From: a virus
Direction: 5' to 3' (one strand)
Length of the DNA stretch: 64,000 nt
Virus record (IMG/VR): IMGVR_UViG_3300045450_000055
Coordinates: 1 to 64,000 of that record
Translations under genes and position numbers: made by a program
Notes under the pieces: model-generated
Databases searched by the model: none
Seen by the model: the letters and a program-made list of their open reading frames with translations, nothing else
Told to the model about the DNA's origin: nothing
Shown here: in pieces, positions 4,698 to 58,228 of the stretch
Layout: each line of letters starts with the position of its first letter
How positions within the stretch are numbered: the stretch's first letter is position 1

Positions 4698-5132
4698 ATG
4701 GACCCGAACATCCGCTATTTCACTCGCGTGTCTGGCTGGACCTCAGACGGCCGCGGCGGCACCAAGCCGGGCGGCAAGGTTGAAGTCGAAGGACACGTCG
4801 ATCTCGCTACCGCTCTCGACGCAGGCGACAAAGCCGGCATCCTGATGCGCGATCGTGAGCATGTCACGATCGAGCATCTGGTGGAACTCAAGGTGCCTTC
4901 CAAGTGGAAGGGCAACGACCTTCTTGTGCAGTCCCTGAACGGGGATAATTTCATCAAGCTCGACGACGACGTGGATAACGAGATCGTCTTTCTGTCGGAC
5001 TCGTGGGGAGACTTCAATGCGTCCTACCCCTACGACGATAACGCCGGCCGGGAAGGCGCACGCGCCGCAGCAACGCGGACGGCGAAGTATCTGGCGGAAC
5101 AGCGCAACATCGAATGGGGAAGTAACTGGTAA
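4698..5132 (+). CDS. hypothetical protein
   Basis: ATG 1 nt after upstream stop; tail of track ORF 4614..5132. Confidence 0.65.
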   Translation: MDPNIRYFTRVSGWTSDGRGGTKPGGKVEVEGHVDLATALDAGDKAGILMRDREHVTIEHLVELKVPSKWKGNDLLVQSLNGDNFIKLDDDVDNEIVFLSDSWGDFNASYPYDDNAGREGARAAATRTAKYLAEQRNIEWGSNW

Positions 5133-6112
5133 TGAAGAACGTCCGCACACTCGTCCGCATCCAGCACGGCTCGCACCTGTATGGCACCTCGACGCCGGCC
5201 AGCGATCTCGACTACAAGTCGATCCACCTCCCGCCCGGCCGCGGTATCTTGCTCGGCAAGCCGGAGGACGTGATCGATCGCAAGGTCAAGCTGTCGGATA
5301 CCGTCAAGAACCAAGCCGGCGACATCGACGACCAGTCCTACAGCCTCGCCAAGTGGCTCAAGATGCTTTACTCGGGCGATACGGTCGGCACCGAAATACT
5401 GTTCTGCCCGCCTGAGTTCATCGTCGAGATGGACCCGCTCTGGCCGGAAGTACAGCAGCGAGCCAAGGGCCTCCTCAACAAGCAGGTCAAGGGCTTCGTG
5501 TCGTACTGCCAGCGTCAGGCGGCCAAGTACGGCGTCAAGGGCTCGCGCATGGCCTCGTGCAAGGCGATCATCGATCTGCTGGACACGAAGATCAAGACGC
5601 ACGGTCTGGGTGCCAAGCTGGCAGAGATCGGCGCGGAACTGAATCAGTTCTGTTCGGACCACGAGTTCGCCGAAATGGTGCCGATCAAGCAGCAATCTGG
5701 CGACGATCTCTACCATCTCGAAGTCGTCGATCGCAAGATTCCGGTGACCAACACACTCAAGGCGGCGCGCGACATCTACGCCAAGGTGTTCGACAATTAC
5801 GGCGAACGCGCCCGTGCTGCGATGGACAACAAGGGAATCGACTGGAAGGCGATGAGCCACGCCGTCCGCGTCGCCGGGCAGGCGCTCGAACTCCTCCGCA
5901 ACGGCACCATCACGTTCCCGCGTGTCGAAGCGCCGCTGCTCCTCCAGATCAAGAAGGGTGAGCTTCCGTTCGAGACAGTCGGCGCTCTGCTGGAAGACCT
6001 CGTGGACGAAATGGAGGAAGCGTCGGCCGGCTCCAGTCTGCCGCGCAAGCCGGATTTCGATCTGGTCGATCGGCTGATCCTCGACTACTACCTCCCTCAG
6101 GTGATCGGATGA
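5132..6112 (+). CDS. Pol-beta-fold nucleotidyltransferase, RlaP-like (RNA-repair-associated family)
   Basis: N-terminal HGSHLYGTSTPASDLDYK = GSxxYG..SDxD nucleotidyltransferase motif; family assignment from memory of PF10127. Confidence 0.55.
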   Translation: MKNVRTLVRIQHGSHLYGTSTPASDLDYKSIHLPPGRGILLGKPEDVIDRKVKLSDTVKNQAGDIDDQSYSLAKWLKMLYSGDTVGTEILFCPPEFIVEMDPLWPEVQQRAKGLLNKQVKGFVSYCQRQAAKYGVKGSRMASCKAIIDLLDTKIKTHGLGAKLAEIGAELNQFCSDHEFAEMVPIKQQSGDDLYHLEVVDRKIPVTNTLKAARDIYAKVFDNYGERARAAMDNKGIDWKAMSHAVRVAGQALELLRNGTITFPRVEAPLLLQIKKGELPFETVGALLEDLVDEMEEASAGSSLPRKPDFDLVDRLILDYYLPQVIG

Positions 6113-11320: not shown

Positions 11321-11824
11321 GTGAAGTTCTATCAGGTCCAGACCCCAGCCGGCCCGCGATTCGCCCGTACCCAGTCCGAGGCCAAGGCGATCGACAAGAA
11401 CTTTCAGCTAGTCGATCTTCCGATCGATCAGGCGTCGCTCGTCGAGCGGTACAACGACCTGTTCGAGGAAGGGGCGCGGTTCGCTCAGAACTCCGGCATC
11501 AGGATCAACGACCAGCCGGCGACCGCGGCCGACGTGGTGGCGCTCGCCCAAGCCATGGACGACGAGGACGGAGGCTATCCACAACCGCCCGTCAGGGGCA
11601 AGAAGGCGGTTGAGAACACAAGCCCCACGGATTGGGGTTTGGCCCCTCCAGAGGGCTCCTGCGAGCGCTGCGTCGCCATGTCGCAAGCCTCCCGCGACAT
11701 CGAGGAGATCATGGCGATCACGAACATCGAATGGGCGCTGTACTATGCGTCTGACAAGATGCTCGATCGCGTCGAGGCGGCAGTAGCTGCCCGCCGGGCG
11801 GAACTGGCCGAAAAGGATCGATAA
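11321..11824 (+). CDS. hypothetical protein
   Basis: GTG after CAGGAGGG; tail of track ORF 11141..11824. Confidence 0.6.
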   Translation: MKFYQVQTPAGPRFARTQSEAKAIDKNFQLVDLPIDQASLVERYNDLFEEGARFAQNSGIRINDQPATAADVVALAQAMDDEDGGYPQPPVRGKKAVENTSPTDWGLAPPEGSCERCVAMSQASRDIEEIMAITNIEWALYYASDKMLDRVEAAVAARRAELAEKDR

Positions 11825-12168
11825 TGCGGCCTGTGTCCTATCCATCGGAACCGGAAGAAGAGATCGCGTGCGCCGCGAATCGATATCCCGACATTGGGGT
11901 ATTTCCGCTACCCGCACCTGCCCGGCATCATCACATCATGTGGACATACCTCATGATTTTCGGCAGCGGCGCGAACAGATGCGAGCAAGGCTTCCTTACT
12001 ACCAAGGGTCGCTTTGTCGATCGCATCGAAGGTCTGCGGATCGCTCAGGCGGCCGATCAGCTACTGGAGAAATGCGGCGACCCCACCCGCCTGTTCTCCG
12101 AGGACCTATGGCCTACCCCACCCGAAGCGGCGATGTATTCGATCGTTAAACTCGACGAAGACGATTGA
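11824..12168 (+). CDS. hypothetical protein
   Basis: track ORF; TAATG coupling. Confidence 0.6.
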   Translation: MRPVSYPSEPEEEIACAANRYPDIGVFPLPAPARHHHIMWTYLMIFGSGANRCEQGFLTTKGRFVDRIEGLRIAQAADQLLEKCGDPTRLFSEDLWPTPPEAAMYSIVKLDEDD

Positions 12169-25994: not shown

Positions 25995-26380
25995 TGGAGC
26001 AGGAAGCAGTGACGCTGCCGTTGAGCCGCAAGGAGGCAGAAGCGATCATGTGGGGCCTTGCCCAGATCGGCGACTATCTCGATCGCGAGCCGACCGACCC
26101 GGCCGATCCCTTGCGACGCCTGCTCGATCTCGGATACACCCGAGAATCGATCGGAGAGACGTGTGAGGGCCTGTTTGCGGTCGCCTACGGGGATTGGCTG
26201 GCGTCGCCGCTTACGTCCCTAGAAGGGGATATTCTGAGGATGTGCGTGGAGTCCACGTCATGGGTCGCCGCGTACAGCCTCGAAGGTATTTCCACCACGG
26301 AAGCGCGGACCACGCTCCGCTCCCTCGCCGCCAAGCTCGACAAGCTCGGCATCGACATCAACCACATCCCCAACAACTAG
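25994..26380 (+). CDS. hypothetical protein
   Basis: track ORF; TGATG coupling. Confidence 0.6.
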   Translation: MEQEAVTLPLSRKEAEAIMWGLAQIGDYLDREPTDPADPLRRLLDLGYTRESIGETCEGLFAVAYGDWLASPLTSLEGDILRMCVESTSWVAAYSLEGISTTEARTTLRSLAAKLDKLGIDINHIPNN

Positions 26381-26388
26381 GAGGAATC

Positions 26389-27453
26389 ATGCACGACGTT
26401 TTCTGTTTCGCGCTCCGTGGACGCCCCTACGGCCCGCAGCACGAGTTCAACATCCTGCAAGGGCTGGAGATCGCCCAGTACGGGTTCATCTTTATCGGTT
26501 CGGCCGAAGAGCCGATCAACTTCCGCAATGCGTTCACGGCTGCGGAAGTGGCGCAGATGATCCGCGGCTCGCTGACCGCAGCCCAGAACGATCGCATCTT
26601 CATCTTCGCAGTCGAGGATCAAGACAGCGATCCTCAGTGGGCGACCCTGATCCAGCGCCTCACGGCCGAGACCGCAGCCACCCTGTCGCTCGGGCACCCG
26701 CCCCGCGTCACGTTGGTCGGACACGCCAAGGACCATTCGTCCTATTACCTCAAGCTGTTCCCGCAATGGGAATCGTACAATACGCCCAACTTCGGCAACA
26801 ACATGTCGGCGACGGACCTGCGTCACGCGCTCTACAACGCGACCGATCCCATGACCGAACTCAGCGTGATCCATGCACGCGATCGTCTTCCGATCGGCAC
26901 CTTCACTTTCCTGCGCCAGTGGGTCCGGTCGCCGGCCTTCGAGAGGATGCGGGACGAGTATCTGTTCAACGTCAAGGAGGACGCCAAGTACGGCCCCCAC
27001 CCTTATCGTCAGGTGCATATCCACGCGACCGCCGACTACTGCCTGATGCAGTCAGGCGCGGTGCTGCTGGTCCGGCGCGGCGAGATGCCGGGTAAGGGAC
27101 AGTGGGCGCTTCCGGGCGGCCACATTGGTGACCATGAGCGGTTCCGCGACGCTGCTGTCCGTGAACTGTGTGAGGAGACCTCGATCCTCGAACTCAACAG
27201 CACGCTGGACAAGGGCGACCTGTACGCTGCGATCAAGGCAGAGAAGGTGTACGACGATCCGTGGCGTTCGACCCGGATGCGGACCATCGACATGGCCTAT
27301 GGCGGCATCCTTCACCGGACCACGCGTCCGCTGGTCGAAGGCACCGACGACGCCGAAGCGGCGCGGTGGTGGAACCTCGACGAGGTGGTGCGCTCCATGA
27401 TGTTCGAGGATCATTACAATATGATCCAATTCTTCTCTCAGACTCTGCGCTAA
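26389..27453 (+). CDS. NMN adenylyltransferase-like / Nudix hydrolase fusion (NadM-Nudix type)
   Basis: TAGGAGGA RBS; C-terminal Nudix box GGHIGDHERFRDAAVRELCEETS; N-terminal domain has RGRPYGPQHEFN where NadM has GRFQPxHxGH. Confidence 0.65.
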   Translation: MHDVFCFALRGRPYGPQHEFNILQGLEIAQYGFIFIGSAEEPINFRNAFTAAEVAQMIRGSLTAAQNDRIFIFAVEDQDSDPQWATLIQRLTAETAATLSLGHPPRVTLVGHAKDHSSYYLKLFPQWESYNTPNFGNNMSATDLRHALYNATDPMTELSVIHARDRLPIGTFTFLRQWVRSPAFERMRDEYLFNVKEDAKYGPHPYRQVHIHATADYCLMQSGAVLLVRRGEMPGKGQWALPGGHIGDHERFRDAAVRELCEETSILELNSTLDKGDLYAAIKAEKVYDDPWRSTRMRTIDMAYGGILHRTTRPLVEGTDDAEAARWWNLDEVVRSMMFEDHYNMIQFFSQTLR

Positions 27454-27464
27454 GGGGCGTCACC

Positions 27465-28961
27465 ATGCAGTTCTACGACGATATCGGCGACCTCCTTCGC
27501 CAGCCGATCATGAACAAGGATACGTACAAGGCCAGTCACTGGACCTTCGAACATCCTGAGTTCACTTCCACATACGGATACATCGAAGCCCGCAAGGGTG
27601 GCGAGTTCAATGAGGTGATGTGGTTCGGTAACCTCTATACGCTGCGTTACTTCCTGACGCAGCGCTGGACGCCGGCCTTCATCGACCACGCCGCGGTCTT
27701 CCTGCCGCTGCACGGCGTACCGTTCGATCGCAAGGCCGCGATGGTCGTGTGGGAGAAGTATGACGGCCGCCTGCCTGTGCGGGTCAGCCAGCTTCCGGAA
27801 GGCATCGTCGTGCCGCAAGGCACCGTCCTGTCCACGGTCGAGTCGCTCGATGAGGAGTGCGCCGGTCTGGCGATTACCATCGAGACCCTACTGTTGCGCT
27901 GCTGGTTGCCGACGACGCTGGCGACCCGCGGGATGCGCTGGTGGCGGCTGATCGAAGAATATCTGGAGATCAGCGGCACGCCCGGCACTGCCGAGTTCAA
28001 GGTCGTCGATTTTTCGGCTCGCGGCTGCCGCTCCACCGAAGATGCCGGTATCTCCGGCATGGCTCATCTGGTCAACTTCAAGGTGACCGACAACCTGATG
28101 GGCATCCTCTTCGGCCAGCATACCTACCGGACCGACGAGATGCTGGGATACTCGATCCCGGCGACCGAACACTCGGTCACCACGTCGTGGGGACGGGACC
28201 GCGAGCAGGCGTTCTTCGAACACATCCTCGAAGTCCACGGCCAGTCTATCAACCCGCTGGGTGGGCGCTACCCGGTATCGGTGGTGATCGACACCTACGA
28301 TCAGGACGAAGCGATCAAGATGTGGTTGACGCCGGCTGACAAGGGCGGATGTGGGCTGCTGGAGAAGCTGATCGCGTCGAACATGAAGCTGGTGCTTCGC
28401 CCCGACTCTGGTGATCCCATCATCAACGTCGTCCATGTTCTCGATCTGGTCGAGAGTCTTGTCGGCTCGACGAACAACGCCAAGGGCTTCCGGATGCTCC
28501 CGGACTTCGTGGCGGTCATTCAGGGCGACGGTATCAACGAGGACAGCCTGCGGCGTATCCTCCAGCGCGTCACCTACCACAAGTGGTCGATCGACAACCT
28601 GACGTTCGGCTCGGGCGGCGGCCTGATGATGCACGAGGTCGAGCGCGACACTCACCGCTTTGCCATGAAGGCGTCGGAGGTAATCGTGGGCGGCGTCACC
28701 AGCGCCATCCAGAAGACGGTTAAGACCGACCCGTCGAAGGCATCGAAGGCTGGTCGCTTCGCGGTGGTTCGCCGGGAGGTTCCGCACTTCCCGGAGCCCT
28801 ATATCGACTTCGTGACGATCGCAGAAGCCGACCTGCTGCCGGGCGAACTCAACTGGCTCCAGCCGGTGTTCGAGCATGGTGAACTTCTCGAACCGGCGCA
28901 GACCTTCGAGGATGTCCGGGTGAACGCCGCCTACTGGCGCAACCAGACGCGTCCCGCCTGA
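27465..28961 (+). CDS. nadV: nicotinamide phosphoribosyltransferase (NAMPT/NadV)
   Basis: ~500 aa; ..DTYKASHW.., ..DFSARG.., ..SIPATEHS.., ..RPDSGDP.., ..GDGI.., ..FGSGGGL.. NAMPT-type motifs. Confidence 0.85.
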   Translation: MQFYDDIGDLLRQPIMNKDTYKASHWTFEHPEFTSTYGYIEARKGGEFNEVMWFGNLYTLRYFLTQRWTPAFIDHAAVFLPLHGVPFDRKAAMVVWEKYDGRLPVRVSQLPEGIVVPQGTVLSTVESLDEECAGLAITIETLLLRCWLPTTLATRGMRWWRLIEEYLEISGTPGTAEFKVVDFSARGCRSTEDAGISGMAHLVNFKVTDNLMGILFGQHTYRTDEMLGYSIPATEHSVTTSWGRDREQAFFEHILEVHGQSINPLGGRYPVSVVIDTYDQDEAIKMWLTPADKGGCGLLEKLIASNMKLVLRPDSGDPIINVVHVLDLVESLVGSTNNAKGFRMLPDFVAVIQGDGINEDSLRRILQRVTYHKWSIDNLTFGSGGGLMMHEVERDTHRFAMKASEVIVGGVTSAIQKTVKTDPSKASKAGRFAVVRREVPHFPEPYIDFVTIAEADLLPGELNWLQPVFEHGELLEPAQTFEDVRVNAAYWRNQTRPA

Positions 28962-43748: not shown

Positions 43749-45050
43749 TCAGCCCTTGACGTTGACGACCTGCTTGAGCGAGTAGACGATCTCGACGAGA
43801 TCGGACTGCGCCGCCATCACGGCCCCGATGTTCTTGTACGCAGCCGGGCTCTCGTCGATGACATCGGCGTCCTTGCGGCACTCGACGCCAGCGGTCGCCT
43901 TGGCGTGGTCCTCCAGCGAGATCATCTTCTTGGCCTGCGTCCGGCTCATCACGCGCCCCGCGCCGTGGCTGCAAGAGCAGAACGACTCCGAGTTGCCGAG
44001 ACCGCGGACGATGAAGCTGCCGGTCGCCATCGAGCCGGGGATGATCCCCATGGTGCCCTCACGGGCCTGCACGGCACCCTTGCGGGTCACCAGCACCGGC
44101 TCGCCGAAGTGCTGCTCCTTGGTGACGTAATTGTGATGGCAGTTGATCGCCACTTCCGTCAGCGCGAACGGCGGGATGTAGTTGCGATCGACCAGCGTCT
44201 GGAGCGCCTTGACGACCGCGGCCATCATGGCGTTGCGGTTCTCGCGAGCATAGTCCTGACCGAGACCCACACCTTCCATGTAGTCGTCATACATGACATC
44301 ACCCTCCGTCAGGAACGCAAGGTCCTGATCGGGGAGGAAGGTCTGCATGTGCCGACGCGCCATGTCCTCCTTGGCTCGCTCGATGAAGAACGAGCCGATC
44401 TTGTTGCCGACACCACGCGATCCGGAGTGCAGCATCAGCCACACGTCGTCGTTCTCGTCCAGACACACCTCGATGAAGTGGTTGCCGGTGCCGAGCGTAC
44501 CCAACTGGTGGGCCGGCGACTTGTGCATTTTGAGCTTCGGATACTTGGCGAGGATCGCATCATAGCGCTCGGCCAGACTGAACTCGGTAACACGATAGGG
44601 GACACCGAAGGTCGGCTTGCCGTTGAACCAGCGGTTTTCGATGGTCTCCGGCACGCCACCCCACGACCCCGGATCGCGACCGCTGCTGATCTGCTGCTGC
44701 GTGCCCCGGCCGTGCGGAACCGCGCGCTCGATCGCATCACGCATCTCGAACAGGTTGTCGGGAAGCTGATCGGCCCGGAGGGTAGTCTTGATCGCCATCA
44801 TGCCGCAGCCGATGTCAACGCCGACCGCCGCAGGGACGACCGCGCCCTTGGTGGCGAACACCGTACCGACCGTGGAGCCAATACCAGCATGTGCATCCGG
44901 CATGACAGCGACATGCTTAAACACGAAAGGCATCCGGGCCATATTGCGAATTTGCTCGATCGCCTGCCTCTCGAAAGGGATGCCGTCCGGCTCCCACATC
45001 TTCATGAGGCCCTTGGCCCCGTTGATCCGCTCGACCTGCTCTACGCGCAT
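43749..45050 (-). CDS. rtcB: RtcB RNA 3'-phosphate ligase
   Basis: ..MPDAHAGIGSTVG.., ..DIGCGM.., ..GTGNHFIE.., ..HSGSRGVGN.., ..NCHHNY.., ..PGSM.., ..SHGAGR..; ATG after GGGAGAC. Confidence 0.9.
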   Translation of the reverse strand: MRVEQVERINGAKGLMKMWEPDGIPFERQAIEQIRNMARMPFVFKHVAVMPDAHAGIGSTVGTVFATKGAVVPAAVGVDIGCGMMAIKTTLRADQLPDNLFEMRDAIERAVPHGRGTQQQISSGRDPGSWGGVPETIENRWFNGKPTFGVPYRVTEFSLAERYDAILAKYPKLKMHKSPAHQLGTLGTGNHFIEVCLDENDDVWLMLHSGSRGVGNKIGSFFIERAKEDMARRHMQTFLPDQDLAFLTEGDVMYDDYMEGVGLGQDYARENRNAMMAAVVKALQTLVDRNYIPPFALTEVAINCHHNYVTKEQHFGEPVLVTRKGAVQAREGTMGIIPGSMATGSFIVRGLGNSESFCSCSHGAGRVMSRTQAKKMISLEDHAKATAGVECRKDADVIDESPAAYKNIGAVMAAQSDLVEIVYSLKQVVNVKG

Positions 45051-45065
45051 ATTCTGTCTCCCTGT

Positions 45066-45257
45066 GTGGGCCTCGTGAGGTACTTCCACCCTCACGAGGC
45101 CCTTAAATACAAACCTTTACCTGCACAAATCCTGACCGAGATGGCGGCCTCCCATTCAATTAACGCATAAAAACCTCCCTCATACGAGACGAACCCGGAA
45201 CGAACCGTGATTCGAAGCGATGAGGGAGGTATAGGTGTTAGTCAGACTGTCTGTCAA
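45066..45257 (-). promoter_or_regulatory. structured rtcB leader: promoter overlapping a terminator hairpin, plus a 13-bp hairpin
   Basis: TTGACA(45257..45252)-N17-CTATAC; CCTCCCTCAT/ATGAGGGAGG stem (45174..45229) + T5; GGGCCTCGTGAGG/CCCTCACGAGGCCC (45066..45099). Confidence 0.5.
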
Positions 45258-48465: not shown

Positions 48466-48909
48466 TTAGTTGAGGGTGGAGTAGTGGAGGGCGGTCACCG
48501 GGCCGCCTGAGTTCTTATCGTGACAGGAGGCGGCAAGGACGGCCTCTTCGGCTGTGGCTCCATGAGCCATCGCGCCTAGTGCCAGCATCGCCCCTGAACC
48601 GATTGCGGTGTAATCGGCGTAGATGGGGATAAGAAACCCGCTATCGAACTCGTGGGCTTGGCCCTGCTCGTCGATAATGAGCGCCGTGAAGTTGTCCTCG
48701 TTCTGCATTAGGAGAGTGGGGACGGCATCCTCCGGGCAGCCTTCCTCTGCCCAAGTTTCGAGAGCCGTACGCAGGAACGCCTTACCGGCCAGAGCGACCA
48801 TGAAGCGACCACACTTCGCGATCTTGGGTCGGTGACCATTGGTGATCGTGTTGTAGGCGATCATCGTATCGGCCGCGAGTGTGCCGGAGCGGTATGCGAT
48901 CGTTGTCAT
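48466..48909 (-). CDS. Ntn-hydrolase, HslV/20S-proteasome-beta-like peptidase
   Basis: starts MTTIAY (Thr after Met as in HslV); ..IAKCG.., ..ALAG.., ..AIGSGAMLALGA.. pattern. Confidence 0.6.
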   Translation of the reverse strand: MTTIAYRSGTLAADTMIAYNTITNGHRPKIAKCGRFMVALAGKAFLRTALETWAEEGCPEDAVPTLLMQNEDNFTALIIDEQGQAHEFDSGFLIPIYADYTAIGSGAMLALGAMAHGATAEEAVLAASCHDKNSGGPVTALHYSTLN

Positions 48910-48939
48910 GTGCTAACCCTGCTCGATTTGGTGAGGCAC

Positions 48940-48967
48940 GGTTAAGCTAAACTGCCGCCAGTGTCAA
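48940..48967 (-). promoter_or_regulatory. class B promoter
   Basis: TTGACA-N14-GCTTAACC on minus strand. Confidence 0.55.
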
Positions 48968-48991
48968 GTATGAATAACCATCAGCGCCACA

Positions 48992-49034
48992 ACGAGAAAG
49001 GCCCGACGCTCACCAGATGGGAGCGCCGGGCCTT
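48992..49034 (-). terminator. terminator of the tmRNA/ncRNA transcription unit
   Basis: AAGGCCCGGCGCTC-9 nt-GAGCGTCGGGCCTT + TTCTCGTT on minus strand. Confidence 0.6.
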
Positions 49035-49079
49035 ATGCCGGGATCGAAGATGAGGGAGACAGCCTGCTCCCGGCAATCT

Positions 49080-49252
49080 GGTGGATGACAACGACTACGG
49101 CAATATTCCGCGACGGCTCATGGGACACCCGTTGGGTGATTAGGTATCCCTTCGTGGGAGGCTGTCCACACCTCATGCCCCCTCCCACACGACCGGAAGC
49201 TACCGTTCAGAGGACCGCGCAATCCTCTTAGCCGTAGTCGATGTCATCCACC
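49080..49252. repeat. 173-bp element closed by 22-bp inverted repeats (structured RNA module or MITE-like)
   Basis: GGTGGATGACAACGACTACGGC (49080..49101) vs GCCGTAGTCGATGTCATCCACC (49231..49252), 1 mismatch; three hairpins inside. Confidence 0.7.
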
Positions 49253-49389
49253 TCTCAAGAGGACGTTGGGTTTACTATCCGTGCGAAGCACGTACCGGAT
49301 ATTGGCAGAGGTCATGACTCCCCCACATTATTCTCCGTTTTAGCCTCAATCGATGCCCTTCCATGGTGGCAGCAACCTCTTGGCTGACA

Positions 49390-49684
49390 AGGGACCCTCA
49401 CCTAAGGGGTCCGAGCCCAACGCCCACCTGAAAGGTGGTGGCCTGTTCTGTTCCAACGTCAGGTTCCCCACGCGGCCTGCCGGGGTCAACCAGCAGGAGT
49501 TTTTGCCTTACTTCACCAGCGAACTGGCTCCGATCGGCGGGTAGGAATTACGCCGCGAGGCGCATTTCCACGACAGTGTTGTCGTTCGCATTTACATGCT
49601 TTGGCCTGTTCGCCCCGGAGGACAGGTCAGCCATGCCTAATCGCGTCTTCTCTTCGCCTTGCCCGTCGATCCTAGTTCGTCCCC
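49390..49684 (-). ncRNA. ssrA: tmRNA coding piece of a two-piece permuted ssrA; 3' end uncertain
   Basis: 5' GGGGACGAACTAGGATCGACGGG (cf. E. coli GGGGCUGAUUCUGGAUUCGACGGG); tag GCG AAC GAC AAC ACT GTC GTG GAA ATG CGC CTC GCG GCG TAA at 49589..49548; pseudoknots downstream. Confidence 0.75.
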
Positions 49685-49749
49685 ATCAACGACACAGGCC
49701 CTGTGAGTGGGCTAGGTCCCTTCACAGGCGATAACGGTGCCTGTGCCGA

Positions 49750-49835
49750 TGGTGGAGACGACGGGTACTGCCCCCGTGTCCGAGCCAAAGTTCCGATCGT
49801 CCGAATTACGATCATCTCACCATCACTGGTGACGA
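49750..49835 (-). ncRNA. ssrA: tmRNA acceptor piece; 5' end uncertain
   Basis: ..CTCGGAC-ACGGG-GGCAGTA-CCCGT-CGTCTCC-A-CCA ends at 49750; CGTCTCC pairs with GGGGACG giving G3:U70. Confidence 0.7.
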
Positions 49836-50672
49836 GGACACTGAACTGGAAATCTGCCCCACTGGTTCCAACCAGCTATGTCAACTAGGGGTTAATGCCG
49901 GTTCGGCGGCTCAGATGTTCAGTGTCCACATCACTGGTGATGAGGACAATGAGAATGATTGGCACGCGCGCCGCCCACTTTTACGATACCGTTTACCTCA
50001 GGGAGTCGAACCCCCGGCACCGTTCTCATTGTCCACATCACAAGTGACCATCACACCCTATGAGGAGACACCAAGCTCGTCAAGGTCACTACTCCCGACT
50101 TGCCGGCCCAGTGTAGACCCACATGGAAGGGTGTTTCTGCCCCGCCTTGCTGTGTCCCCACATAGGGAGTGATGTATGTCGGTTGGGGCTCAGGCTTCGG
50201 CACCGCACTCCGGGTATGATCTCCCGGCTCTCTTGGTCCTACCACTCTGGCCCCACCCGGATCGTCAGATCAGTTTGGGTATGCTCCCGCGCCTTTGAGG
50301 CTGATGGAGCTAGTCTGAGTTCGACTCAGTGTAGCGATTATTCTCGCGACTATCGGAAAATGCACTACGCCTCCTATATAACGGCGCAGCGCCTGCATCG
50401 CTTCCGGCTCAGCCGGTCACATCTACCGCAGCTTCATGGTCGGGAACTCCCCATTCGACGATCACGCCCCACGATCGCAGGGGCTGGAAACAAAGTGGGA
50501 GGCATCTAACCCTCCCGCACCATTTAGCCGCCCCTGAGTACCGCGCCAAATAGCGCACCTCAGATGTCCTCCTCGGGACCGGCAGTCAAGGGCGTGGACC
50601 CCTACACCATTCTGCGCCGCGAGGCAGTCTCCGGTCCCGGCGGGGAAACCCGGCGACACCCTCGCTTGGTGT
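49836..50672 (-). ncRNA. candidate large structured RNA (unknown family) upstream of the tmRNA
   Basis: own promoter; no credible ORF on either strand; many nested helices; two tandem stem-closed modules at 49836..50034. Confidence 0.4.
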
Positions 50673-50678
50673 GGGCTC

Positions 50679-50707
50679 TGTCTATGGCGATTCGGGGGAA
50701 GTGTCAA
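50679..50707 (-). promoter_or_regulatory. minus-strand promoter of the ncRNA/tmRNA unit
   Basis: TTGACA-N17-TAGACA. Confidence 0.5.
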
Positions 50708-50772
50708 CTGAAAATTTCAGTGATGTAAGGTTTTTCGTAAACCTTCTTCTCAACGCCGTCATCGGCGGAGGC

Positions 50773-50847
50773 TGGCAGGGGAGTAAGGAATCGAACCTCA
50801 GACACGCGGGATTGGAAGCCGCTGCTCTACCACTGAGCTACACCCCC
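50773..50847 (-). tRNA. tRNA-Trp(CCA)
   Basis: hand-folded cloverleaf; anticodon loop TTCCAAT; T-loop TTCGATT; CCA encoded; 31:39 C-C and one acceptor mismatch. Confidence 0.8.
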
Positions 50848-51257: not shown

Positions 51258-51275
51258 ACATGTCCATGGGCTAGG

Positions 51276-51349
51276 GGTGACCGGCGGGGTTCGAACCCGC
51301 TATATCCCGGATCACAACCGGGCACATCATCCAAGTCTGCCTCGGTCAC
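51276..51349 (-). tRNA. tRNA-His(GTG)
   Basis: CCCGG-TTGTGAT-CCGGG; T-arm GCGGG-TTCGAAC-CCCGC; weak D stem; no CCA; flanked by 12-bp complementary leader/trailer. Confidence 0.7.
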
Positions 51350-51379
51350 ACCTAGCCCATGGAAGCTAGGATTTGAAAA

Positions 51380-52790: not shown

Positions 52791-52811
52791 TGACAAAACT
52801 CGGTGCTGATT

Positions 52812-52887
52812 TGGAGGACGGACAGGGGCTTGAACCCTGCACCTTCGGAGTAAGAATCCGCTGCTCTACCTACTGAGCTATCCGTCC
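52812..52887 (-). tRNA. tRNA-Lys(CTT)
   Basis: loop TTCTTAC; perfect acceptor GGACGGA/TCCGTCC; CCA encoded; complementary leader/trailer. Confidence 0.85.
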
Positions 52888-53026
52888 GCTAAATCAGCAC
52901 CGGAAGCTCAGGCACGCCACCGGTTAGAGGGTAAACCCTCGTTCGCCTTCTCGGCGATCCCGTTTGCGATCGAACATCATGACTAACTCGAAATCCTTTT
53001 GACGCATGATTGCGTCTGTGAGGCGA

Positions 53027-53125: not shown

Positions 53126-53803
53126 TCAGACCATCGCGTATCCGCGGTGGCGGCGACGCATCCGGGACGCCGCGCCGACCATGGCGAAGCCGACCATCAT
53201 CATCGCCCACGTCGCCGGCTCGGGGACCGCGCCGATGGTCATGCTGTCGATCTCGAAGCCGTTGACCGTCGAGTTGAGGCGCACGCCCTTGACCGCCTGA
53301 TCGGCATCGGTGAAGGTGAAGGTAACCAGACGGTTCGTCAGATCGCTGGTCCAGTCACCGTTGGGGTCGGCCGGGGCGACCACCGCCGCGCCGGTGAACA
53401 GATCGCCGATCGCATATTCCGTCGCGCCGTCGAGGCCGAAGAACTGGAGGCTGTTGTGATGATCCGCGGAGCCCCAGAGGAAGGAAACCGTCGAGATGCC
53501 GGTGCCGATCACGTCGAAGAAGATCGAACCGATGCCCTCGCCGGGACCGTTGAAGGTGGGGCCGACCGAATAATAGCTGCCGGCGCTGCCGACCGGGACC
53601 GCGTGCTGGTTCTCGACGGAGGGCGGCGTCACGATCGCGCCACCGGTGTTGACCGGCGTCTTGCCGTCGAAGTCGTAGGTGATCGTGTCGGCATTGGTCG
53701 TCGAATAGTCGGTCGGGGCGGCGACGCTGGTGACGGTAACCGCGGCGCTGGCGACGGACGGGGTGGCGAGCAGCATGGCTGCCATCATCAAAATCTTGTT
53801 CAT
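53126..53803 (-). CDS. PEP-CTERM (PEPxxWA variant) sorting-domain secreted protein
   Basis: signal peptide MNKILMMAAMLLATPSVASA; C-terminus VPEPATWAMMMVGFAMVGAASRMRRR. Confidence 0.75.
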   Translation of the reverse strand: MNKILMMAAMLLATPSVASAAVTVTSVAAPTDYSTTNADTITYDFDGKTPVNTGGAIVTPPSVENQHAVPVGSAGSYYSVGPTFNGPGEGIGSIFFDVIGTGISTVSFLWGSADHHNSLQFFGLDGATEYAIGDLFTGAAVVAPADPNGDWTSDLTNRLVTFTFTDADQAVKGVRLNSTVNGFEIDSMTIGAVPEPATWAMMMVGFAMVGAASRMRRRHRGYAMV

Positions 53804-56672: not shown

Positions 56673-56689
56673 GTATTGAAATCACTGCT

Positions 56690-56766
56690 TGGTCAGGGCG
56701 GCGGGATTTGAACCCGCGACCTCACCCTTCCGAGGGGCACGCTCTACCGGACTGAGCCACACCCTG
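56690..56766 (-). tRNA. tRNA-Pro(CGG)
   Basis: C1:G72; loop CTCGGAA; T-arm GCGGG-TTCAAAT-CCCGC; CCA encoded; complementary leader/trailer. Confidence 0.85.
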
Positions 56767-56779
56767 ACAAAGCAGTGAA

Positions 56780-57082: not shown

Positions 57083-57091
57083 GAAGAAAAT

Positions 57092-57570
57092 GAAGCCGGG
57101 AGGATTTGAACCTCCGTATGGACACTCAACGGACCCCTAGCGTCCTCGCATCCATTATTGCTTGGGTCACCGATAAACCGGGCTCCGGCACGGCTGCTGG
57201 TGAACCCTGAGGCTCACCCTTGACTACCGGACTTACGTCCGGGATCACCAACAATGAGGACAGCCAGAGGGGAGACAATGACTGCCCACATTGTGGGTGA
57301 AACGAATGTACCGGTTGTTTACCGGCTAGGAATCCCGGTCATCAGTCACCATTGCGACCTACATACCACCCAGACATTCTCGACGGGTTGAGATTACACC
57401 GTCTGCGATCCGTCGTTCGTGCGGATTATAGCAGCCTTGCGAGCCACCTTCCCGACTTATCCACCAAGCCCCTTGCGGTAGCCCGGTCCCAGATCAACGC
57501 CGCCTACTTTTCCCGGTTCTCACGGGGCCGCTGGCTGTTGCGGCGACACTACGGACCTTTCAGCAGCTTC
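57092..57570 (-). ncRNA. candidate ~480-nt structured RNA closed by a 7-bp end helix stacked on a canonical T-arm
   Basis: 5' GAAGCTG pairs 3' CGGCTTC; adjacent GGAGG-TTCAAAT-CCTCC; many internal hairpins (e.g. CCGGAC-gtaa-GTCCGG); no credible ORF; T-run follows. Confidence 0.4.
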
Positions 57571-57728
57571 CAATCCGCCGACGCTCTCACGCCGTTAAGG
57601 GTTTGCGGCCCAACGAACCTTCATCTACTAAACCCTCCTCGACTTGCGGTCTTAGCGGGCACCACGTTGAGACTAGCTCCGTGGCGTTAGGCGTTTTCAG
57701 TTCCGTAGTCGTGACAATCTTTGCGTTT

Positions 57729-57803
57729 TGGTTGCGACTACCGGGGTTGAACCGGCGATCTACAGATTAAGAGTCTGTTGCTTTACCACTAAGCTAAGTT
57801 GCC
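57729..57803 (-). tRNA. tRNA-Lys(CTT)-like with two acceptor mismatches (possible pseudo-tRNA)
   Basis: D-arm GCTT-AGTGGTA-AAGC; ACAGA-CTCTTAA-TCTGT; T-arm GCCGG-TTCAACC-CCGGT; G1-A72 and A4-C69; CCA encoded. Confidence 0.5.
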
Positions 57804-58228
57804 AAGCCACCGAGACGAGCTATCACCTAGTTTCCATGATGTTTCCACCGCAGAAATGCTAGTCGCCTCATGTCCTCTCATGCCGCTAAGCACTACTAGA
57901 ACGGTTGATTCAGGAGGTTCTAAATCCCCTGACCAACTGATTGACGCCCTCGACCGCTAAGTCTCGAACCTTCAACCTTGTGCTTTGTCATCAACAACTG
58001 GTAGTTAGTGCAGAGCTTCGGGTACTACCCCGACGTTTAGTGAACACCGTTGGCCTCCACCTATCCCTTACGGGCCTCATTCTACCAGCAGCCTATCTCC
58101 TGTCACCAGAAGAAGCCCTCGCGAGCCTAACTGCACCTGCCTGAAATCTCCGGTTGCCCGGCGGAGTTAAGTGGCCTTACCTCCTTTGGGGTTCCTTGCG
58201 GAACCTTGTGCCCCTCAGGCGGGGTGTG
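57804..58228 (-). ncRNA. candidate ~425-nt structured 5' RNA of the same transcription unit
   Basis: starts after promoter 58235..58263; no credible ORF; hairpins e.g. GGTTCC-gcaa-GGAACC, CCGG-gcaa-CCGG. Confidence 0.3.

Follow-up and report, generated by a model that had tools for sequence, protein, structure and literature searches.

In a large, GC-rich phage carrying 28 tRNA genes on the minus strand, we analysed a non-coding stretch of about 0.84 kb (positions 49,836 to 50,672) that lies directly upstream of the gene for the transfer-messenger RNA (tmRNA, ssrA). The window comprises 64,000 nucleotides of the IMG/VR virus record IMGVR_UViG_3300045450_000055, i.e., 64 kb of a 163-kb genome. 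A span free of open reading frames (ORFs) extends from the end of tRNA-Trp (50773) to a terminator hairpin (48998-49034), with the tmRNA in the middle of the span. Downstream of the tmRNA unit, a gene of 147 amino acids (aa), a DUF5906 primase-like gene and RtcB follow in the same orientation. Homologues of the 147-aa gene are annotated as proteasome/HslV-type by some sources; the copy in the window has no Pfam match. A preliminary description, made from the sequence alone, had presented the stretch as a promoter-driven, densely paired RNA with two tandem stem-closed modules, possibly related to the large phage RNAs GOLLD and ROOL. We found a mosaic instead: a lineage-specific part of about 500 nt is followed by three contiguous hairpin modules, termed C, A and B, with paralogous closing stems, which we call clamps (Table 1). 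Among them, module C stands out as a true conserved structured RNA, and its family is absent from Rfam.

Among GenBank phages, only Sphingobium phage Lacusarx and Erythrobacter phage vB_EliS-L02 showed DNA similarity, and both matched the tmRNA alone. About 25 related loci were fetched using the neighbouring 147-aa gene as the anchor (given below by L numbers; L026 is Lacusarx). The nearest relative was 77% identical. The cultured relatives of the phage infect sphingomonads, which belong to the alpha-proteobacteria. All 4227 families of Rfam 15 were scanned at the gathering threshold and at E ≤ 10.

Table 1. Features of the tmRNA transcription unit and a related element elsewhere in the window.
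Feature	Position	Strand	Basis
Promoter of the tmRNA transcription unit, TTGACA-N8-GAATCGC-N2-TAGACA	50679..50707	-	Sequence and motif shared with relatives
Lineage-specific 5' leader segment, ~500 nt, non-coding, local hairpins only	50175..50672	-	ORF, similarity and folding tests
Weak terminator-like hairpin within the leader, GGGAGG-8 nt-CCTCCC then ACUUUGUUUC	50497..50516	-	Consensus scan
Module C: 22-bp clamp with two Y-Y mismatches, variable hairpin, conserved UACACUG hairpin, conserved large loop (GAGUAGUGA...CGAGCUU)	50048..50174	-	Inverted repeat I6, covariance model R1
Module A: clamp UCAC/UU/GUGAUG/U/GGACAAUGAGAA around a 67-nt cargo with a T-arm-like hairpin	49931..50047	-	Inverted repeat I1, clamp consensus
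Module B: clamp CAUCAC/CA/GUGAUG/U/GGACACUGAAC around a 70-nt cargo	49821..49942	-	Inverted repeat I3, R1 alignment
Two-piece (permuted, alpha-proteobacterial type) tmRNA, tag ANDNTVVEMRLAA	49457..49832	-	ARAGORN, Rfam
Module D, long-stem, 3' of tmRNA	49248-49438	-	Inverted repeats I7/I4 (D and E), fold
Module E, long-stem, 3' of tmRNA	49080-49252	-	Inverted repeats I7/I4 (D and E), fold
Terminator hairpin closing the unit	48992..49034 (hairpin 48998-49034)	-	Inverted repeat I9, 14 nt at 93%, then U-rich tail
Stem-only copy of the clamp	57245..57300	-	R1 27 bits, E ~6e-5; clamp scan; positional homology with L018

Module C is a third module beyond the two originally noticed, with arms at 50049-71/50152-74 (23 nt at 87%). 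We built a covariance model, R1, from four sequences, with the window copy as a seed member (138.5 bits). The scores range from 52 to 153 bits over 10 distinct sequences: the copies in L002, L003 and L004 reach 140-153 bits, and the independent members, namely Lacusarx (82.5 bits), L028, L033, L035, L015, L017 and L018, score 52-83 bits. The further members beyond the seed were found with E values of 1e-10 to 1e-18. The Lacusarx copy resides in an unannotated intergenic region at record positions 74028-74177, and a motif scan of IMG/VR and GTDB genomes led to the copies in L028, L033 and a Sphingobium sp. MK2 contig. In IMG/VR, the A/B junction and a first motif of module C returned 0-1 hits when searched as exact patterns.

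Across the 10 distinct sequences, 94.8% of the cells in the paired positions of module C hold standard pairs, and compensatory changes occur in 12 of the 35 pairs (38 cells). The covariation score was reached by none of 500 shuffles, and slid controls paired at 30-39%. RNAalifold, run on the first, unfitted MAFFT alignment, already identified nine compensatory pairs out of 35 from three independent sequences. Helix 2 contains an invariant U-G pair (10/10 sequences), so that the tRNA/tmRNA strand fits the RNA better than its complement does; further U-G or G-U pairs are present in fewer sequences. The family members share the clamp, the UACACUG hairpin, the GAGUAGUGA...GAGCUU loop and the covarying pairs. 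The conserved unpaired motifs are the tip of the UACACUG hairpin and the loop G(G)GAGUAGUGA..CC.G..GAGCUU. No Rfam 15 family matched module C, and a search of the window for the complement of the loop returned chance-level matches only. As far as Rfam 15 and literature searches show, the module C family and its clamp architecture are undescribed. The invariance of the loop motifs suggests that they may have a protein- or RNA-binding role in the phage translation/RNA-repair module.

The two perfect stems of the preliminary description (49836-46/49917-27 and 49944-55/50023-34) are indeed present, and turned out to be the inner parts of longer inverted repeats, with arms of 25-26 nt at 85-92% complementarity. 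The arms of module A occupy 49931-55/50023-47 (25 nt at 92%), and those of module B 49821-46/49917-42 (26 nt at 85%). The CATCAC-NN-GTGAYG palindromes at the junctions, located 107-108 bp apart, are the ends of neighbouring clamps. Spacers of only 0-7 nt separate the modules C, A and B and the tmRNA from one another, and the clamp of module B ends at 49821, 5 nt ahead of the conserved tmRNA start at 49815 (AUGAUCGUAAUUCGG).

The stem-only hairpin at 57245-57300 and the stems of modules C, A and B have a common sequence as well as a common pairing. In the clamp consensus, 5' UCACYNNYRAUGYGG... pairs with ...CCNCAUYRNNRGUGA 3', and a pyrimidine-pyrimidine mismatch is conserved. R1 aligns the stem of module B to that of module C with 26 bits. 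Downstream of GOLLD, relatives have a full module C at the place of the stem-only copy. Scanning the window for UCAC...GUGA clamps gave 10 hits on the transcribed strand versus 1.8 in shuffled sequence, including modules C, A and B and a clamp around tRNA-Pro(cgg), with four of the 10 hits elsewhere. The opposite strand gave eight hits because the arms are nearly palindromic. UCAC...GUGA leader-trailer duplexes also flank true tRNAs, namely tRNA-Pro(cgg) in the window (56682-56778), tRNA-Pro in L014 and tRNA-His in L012, and the tRNA-Lys and tRNA-His genes of the window have leader-trailer stems of 21-25 nt. The occurrence of such clamps around real tRNAs of the array therefore suggests a common processing logic. 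As a side observation, the paired leader and trailer lengthen the acceptor stems of tRNA-Lys(ctt) (52801-52902), tRNA-His (51263-51363) and tRNA-Pro(cgg), all on the minus strand, to duplexes of 19-25 bp.

The cargo of module A can be aligned with two adjacent features of Lacusarx and L002, the 3' part of a tRNA-like element and the beginning of the hairpin that follows it (score 21 versus 9.8 ± 1.6 for shuffles, none of 300 shuffles scoring as high). The T-arm-like element noticed earlier in one of the loops, GGGGGTTCGACTCCCTG, belongs to this cargo, and its closing pair is a G-G mismatch. Judged from the alignment, the cargo including GGGGGTTCGACTCCCTG is a truncated relic of the tRNA-like element, not a working tRNA-like domain. 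For the cargo of module B, local alignments detected no homologue. We also considered whether this cargo contains a dead ancestral proximal promoter, as AGTTGACA is found at about the ancestral promoter distance and was aligned by MAFFT to the promoters of relatives. The similarity was not significant, and we rejected this candidate.

The minus-strand promoter TTGACA-N17-TAGACA proposed for the stretch is present at 50707..50679, and its type is conserved across the phage family. The motif TTGACA-N8/9-GAATCGC-N-TAnnnn is located just upstream of the tmRNA in L001, L008, L014, L015, L016, L017 and L018 and also precedes tRNA sub-arrays in the family; the window itself has three copies, at 50707 (-), 55765 (-) and 31173 (+). 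A generic sigma-70 scan did not call the promoter at 50679..50707 because its -10 hexamer ends in A. In the relatives listed, the promoter and the tmRNA start, conserved as A(U/C)G(A/G)UCGUAAUUCGG, are about 35-65 nt apart, compared with about 840 nt in the window. A promoter of the family type that is proximal in relatives thus lies far away here, which makes the stretch an expanded leader of the tmRNA unit. Lacusarx encodes a sigma factor of its own (LAV_00121), which might read the family promoter motif.

The tmRNA directly downstream of the stretch and the terminator at the end of the unit were recovered by ARAGORN, Rfam and the inverted-repeat search. ARAGORN placed the tmRNA at 49457-49842, overlapping the stretch by a few bases, and Rfam at 49548-49832, with 98.5 bits for RF04321 and 84.2 bits for RF01849. 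Modules D and E, between the tmRNA and the terminator, have arms of 22-23 nt and loops of 129-145 nt. Every relative has modules here too, with stems of 18-27 bp; many of these modules carry T-arm motifs and some carry GGUCGAAAG, and they may form a second family of tRNA-like RNAs.

The 0.84 kb stretch is non-coding, in agreement with the preliminary description. Its ORFs are short, and Pfam and PHROG scans of the seven longest matched no family. Tblastx of the stretch against the related loci gave no similarity, and the GC content differs between codon positions by only 0.05, compared with 0.24-0.42 in genes, i.e., there is no codon periodicity. A decayed protein gene was likewise unsupported, with empty ORF and tblastx searches and no trace of codon periodicity.

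The dense pairing attributed to the whole stretch holds for its 3' 350 nt and not for its 5' part of about 500 nt. The entire 843 nt fold at -383 kcal/mol versus -334 ± 6.7 kcal/mol for shuffles (z = -7.3). The modules (49821-50174) reach z = -6.9 by themselves and the 5' 498 nt only z = -2.3, which is within the range of coding controls (mean -0.8, standard deviation 1.45, minimum -3.7). The nested helices GGGACCGG/CCGGTCCC, CTGAG..CTCAG, GGGAGG-loop-CCTCCC and CCGGC-tga-GCCGG can all be found in the sequence; however, 130-nt windows across their area (50426-50690) have z values of +0.3 to -0.8, and within the 5' segment only 50246-50465 reaches -2 to -3.9. The predicted fold contains no long-range pairing of the 5' segment with the modules. 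Searches of this segment by blastn, tblastx and local alignment against relatives, phages, plasmids and the rest of the window revealed no similarity: blastn of 49836-50772 against phages and plasmids had no match, local alignments against the leaders of Lacusarx and L002, the flanks of GOLLD and the rest of the window were not significant, and R1 with filters off detected no hidden copy of module C. A long, ORF-free, GC-rich and promoter-driven stretch can therefore look ornate even when its predicted pairing is for the most part at chance level, which calls for caution in scans of this kind.

The relatives differ greatly in what lies upstream of their tmRNA. L001 has a protein gene with its own promoter at this place, and in L008, L014 and L012 the tmRNA directly follows a gene or a tRNA. 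L002, L003, L004 and Lacusarx have a long leader, in which the promoter is followed by module C, a non-canonical tRNA-like element, a hairpin and then the tmRNA; the leaders of L003 and Lacusarx additionally contain a LAGLIDADG ORF before the tmRNA. The preliminary description proposed aligning homologous regions from related phages as a check on the unit. In that comparison, the unit was not conserved: of the 0.84 kb, relatives conserve only 50048-50174, i.e., module C, at 66-70% identity, and none of the relatives fetched with the anchor gene carries the 5' segment, module A or module B. Module C, of approximately 125 nt, is also the one module with covariation support.

The non-canonical tRNA-like element between module C and the tmRNA (Lacusarx, 11345-11465; L002, 8793-8915; L003, ~525-665) is conserved. 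It combines an acceptor stem with a D-arm and a T-arm, has a long variable hairpin in place of the anticodon arm and is missed by both ARAGORN and the Rfam tRNA model. The ORF directly upstream of the tmRNA is of the LAGLIDADG homing endonuclease type with the motif LAYLAGFLDGEG (L003, ~745-1235; Lacusarx, 11489-12034, LAV_00110) and is annotated as hypothetical or HNH in GenBank. T-arm motifs outside the ARAGORN calls recur in the tRNA arrays of L001, L011, L012 and L014-L018, e.g., GCGAGAGGTTCGAGTCCTCGGTCACC after tRNA-Ser(cga), and probably represent unusual tRNAs or tRNA-like genes missed by standard tools.

The possible relation to GOLLD or ROOL left open by the preliminary description was not borne out by the Rfam scans. 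Only the tmRNA matches 48900-50800 above noise; the other hits at E ≤ 10 were to microRNA, cis-regulatory and snoRNA models (E 0.34-7.7). ROOL, raiA, HEARO, RNase P and group I introns had no match in the stretch, and neither ARAGORN nor Rfam called a tRNA or pseudo-tRNA inside 49843-50772. The permissive Rfam scan of another ORF-poor stretch, about 7 kb away, did find a GOLLD-like RNA at 57385-57828 (-), a full-length match to RF02032 with 108.5 bits and E = 2e-29 (gathering score 150). It has tRNA-Lys(ctt) (57732-57803) in its linker and probably extends to about 58300. GOLLD RNAs are known to carry tRNAs in their linker and to lie near tRNA islands (PMC12286853). The region is 72-79% identical in L015, L017 and L018, where the L018 copy scores 122 bits, and the L033 copy exceeds the gathering score with 158.8 bits. 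Since the model recognises both 57385-57828 and L033, the GOLLD test of the stretch had power.

In the GOLLD-bearing relatives, some 360-760 nt separate GOLLD from the module C downstream of it. No GOLLD was found in the fetched parts of Lacusarx (24 kb) and L002 (20 kb), whose module C resides in the tmRNA leader. The window has only the stem-only clamp downstream of GOLLD and the full module C in the tmRNA leader. Also downstream of the GOLLD-like RNA, 57088-57147 (-) contains a tRNA-like T-arm, GGAGGTTCAAATCCTCC, with a U-tail and a weak match (22.6 bits) to the tRNA-like domain of the tmRNA model. In L018, a tandem of further stem-closed modules (2100-2318) comes after the module C downstream of GOLLD, and one of them has the same type of clamp (UCACUUGCAACAAGGGAG...CUCUCCUUGUUGCGAGUGA).

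Based on these observations, we favour the reading that the 0.84 kb is an expanded mosaic 5' leader of the tmRNA unit and not a single RNA gene, with the clamps as likely processing sites, and we give it a probability of roughly 60%. Direct observations are the mosaic composition, a module C that is conserved and covaries, and the paralogous clamps with their positions. As for the processing, the imperfect clamp duplexes of 19-26 bp would act as endonucleolytic signals, most likely for the host RNase III. Cleavage at the clamps would excise the module RNAs and would give the tmRNA a 5' end near the one that relatives obtain from their proximal promoter.

RNase III cuts duplexes of about 20 bp or more. 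Its processing stems flank rRNA operons, and paralogous R-sites occur in the early transcripts of phage T7. The arms of modules C, A and B, 23-26 nt at 85-92%, form duplexes of this length from the sequences flanking a released RNA. They share with the known stems the internal mismatches within some 20-26 bp and, with those of T7, the presence of several paralogous, sequence-conserved copies in one phage exactly at cistron boundaries. By this analogy, the clamps are probably cleaved as the rRNA-operon stems and the T7 sites are. The window clamps differ in a stem sequence unrelated to the T7 sites and in a cargo that is a small structured RNA or a relic instead of rRNA or mRNA. The stretch also resembles the 5' part of the two-piece tmRNA precursors of alpha-proteobacteria (RF01849 and RF04321). 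In relatives and in the Rfam model, however, the precursor begins a few to a few tens of nucleotides upstream of the acceptor piece (in L018, the first positions of the model align to the promoter region), while the leader in the window is about 840 nt long and has extra modules.

Several points weigh against this reading. A weak terminator-like hairpin is located inside the leader (50497-50516), so that unbroken transcription past it is not certain. No homologues were found for module A, module B or the 5' segment; the pairing in them is a prediction, and they may be evolutionary debris. The alignment of module C was fitted to R1, so that the pairing counts given above are somewhat inflated. 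The clamps contain few G-U pairs, and the opposite strand is nearly as complementary, which makes a DNA-level origin or role of the inverted repeats possible. The A/B and B/tmRNA junctions are palindromic, and alternative local hairpins could form there.

These points bear on the alternative that the inverted repeats are DNA-level elements, either similar to miniature inverted-repeat transposable elements (MITEs) or repetitive extragenic palindromes (REPs) or products of recombination between clamps, such that only module C is a functional RNA and the rest, modules A and B with the 5' segment, is non-functional debris that happens to be transcribed. We regard it as unlikely overall; it could plausibly hold for A, B and the 5' segment, but not for module C. 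The relic state of the module A cargo, the 107-108 bp spacing of the junction palindromes, the conservation of the clamps in sequence instead of pairing alone, with nearly equal complementarity on both strands, and the rearrangement hot spot upstream of the tmRNA, where genes, LAGLIDADG ORFs and tRNA-like elements come and go among relatives, would all fit such elements. Their copies, however, are not dispersed: the sequence-conserved clamps are confined to two non-coding RNA loci (49821-50174 and 57245-57300) on the transcribed strand, exactly at RNA boundaries, with no evident target-site or flanking duplications. The motif GTGATGTGGACA, searched with up to two mismatches, gave 11 hits versus 5.5 expected, five of them in two non-coding RNA stretches (four at 49829-50041 and one at 49163), and was not enriched outside the locus. 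The inner stems of A and B (11-12 bp) are perfect even though their arms differ (AAUGAGAA/UUCUCAUU versus ACUGAAC/GUUCAGU), including a compensated change from A-U to C-G, which suggests that the pairing has been maintained. Correia/NEMIS-type elements are about 100-150 bp long with inverted-repeat ends of about 25 nt, and their transcripts form hairpins cut by RNase III. The window modules have a similar unit size and similar ends, but their clamps are not dispersed through the genome, no target duplications accompany them, and their interiors are non-homologous.

We consider it highly improbable that the entire 0.84 kb acts as one large ornate RNA beside the tRNA/tmRNA island, in the manner of GOLLD or ROOL. 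Large ornate RNAs are known from the surroundings of phage tRNA islands (PMC12286853), and the stretch is promoter-driven and ORF-free with an overall folding z of -7.3; it is also, like GOLLD (RF02032) and ROOL, a phage non-coding RNA region in or beside a tRNA island. But those RNAs have one multi-domain fold, and the stretch is a string of small independent modules without a match to GOLLD, ROOL or another Rfam family above noise at E ≤ 10. As a unit it is absent from all relatives, among which the 125-nt module C alone recurs, in several of them at another locus. The 5' 500 nt, about half of the stretch, fold no better than coding controls and are not predicted to pair with the modules, and the phage already has a GOLLD-like RNA. 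The claim of a single unit is thus left without unit conservation, an Rfam match or excess structure in the 5' part. It also appears improbable that the modules mimic tRNAs, as Y-RNA-like (YrlA-type) molecules or otherwise, and work with RtcB and RlaP, e.g., as decoys for host anticodon nucleases or as tethers for a Ro60-like protein. YrlA carries a 5' GNCGAAN0-1G motif and mimics of the T-arm and D-arm separated by an acceptor-like hairpin (PMC4201824). It resembles the modules in the long stem of its 5' and 3' ends around a structured domain with a T-arm-like hairpin, as in module A, and it is found in genomes with RtcB (PMC4201824). The window encodes RtcB RNA ligase (43749-45095, -) and a RlaP-family nucleotidyltransferase (5132-6112, +), and the modules 3' of the tmRNA in relatives have T-arms, some with GGUCGAAAG, which fits the YrlA motif (PMC4201824). 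Modules A, B and C, however, lack GNCGAAN0-1G and an evident D-arm mimic, B and C have no T-loop, and the T-arm of A, with its mismatched closing pair, is accounted for by the relic. The Y RNA families gave no match at E ≤ 10, and neither the 20 largest ORFs of the window (64 of 163 kb) nor the called genes of relatives yielded a TROVE/Ro60 domain. With neither a TROVE gene nor a motif match, we dropped the Y-RNA idea.

Returning to the proposed processing of the mosaic leader, the conserved clamps suggest a way in which these phages cut their long polycistronic tRNA/tmRNA transcripts. With module C, the few phage RNAs linked to tRNA/tmRNA/GOLLD islands gain a further member, one that is supported by covariation and present in Lacusarx, which is in culture together with its host Sphingobium sp. 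IP1. The location of module C downstream of GOLLD or in the tmRNA leader, depending on the lineage, may help in understanding the function of GOLLD. A possible extension, which we put forward tentatively and consider doubtful as it stands, is that the clamp-and-cargo modules constitute a new class of portable phage non-coding RNA cassette. The clamp, being sequence-specific, would mark small RNAs for excision from long tRNA, tmRNA or GOLLD precursors, and the excised RNAs might then be re-sealed or circularised by phage RNA ligases, such as RtcB or the product of the RNA_ligase-family gene present in the relative L015. Module C would be a partner of translation-takeover RNAs, tethered to GOLLD or the tmRNA according to the lineage. 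Elsewhere in the window, we noted NUDIX and NAPRTase/NAMPT genes of NAD salvage (26194-28961, +) and an ORF with a PEP-CTERM motif (53126-53803, -).

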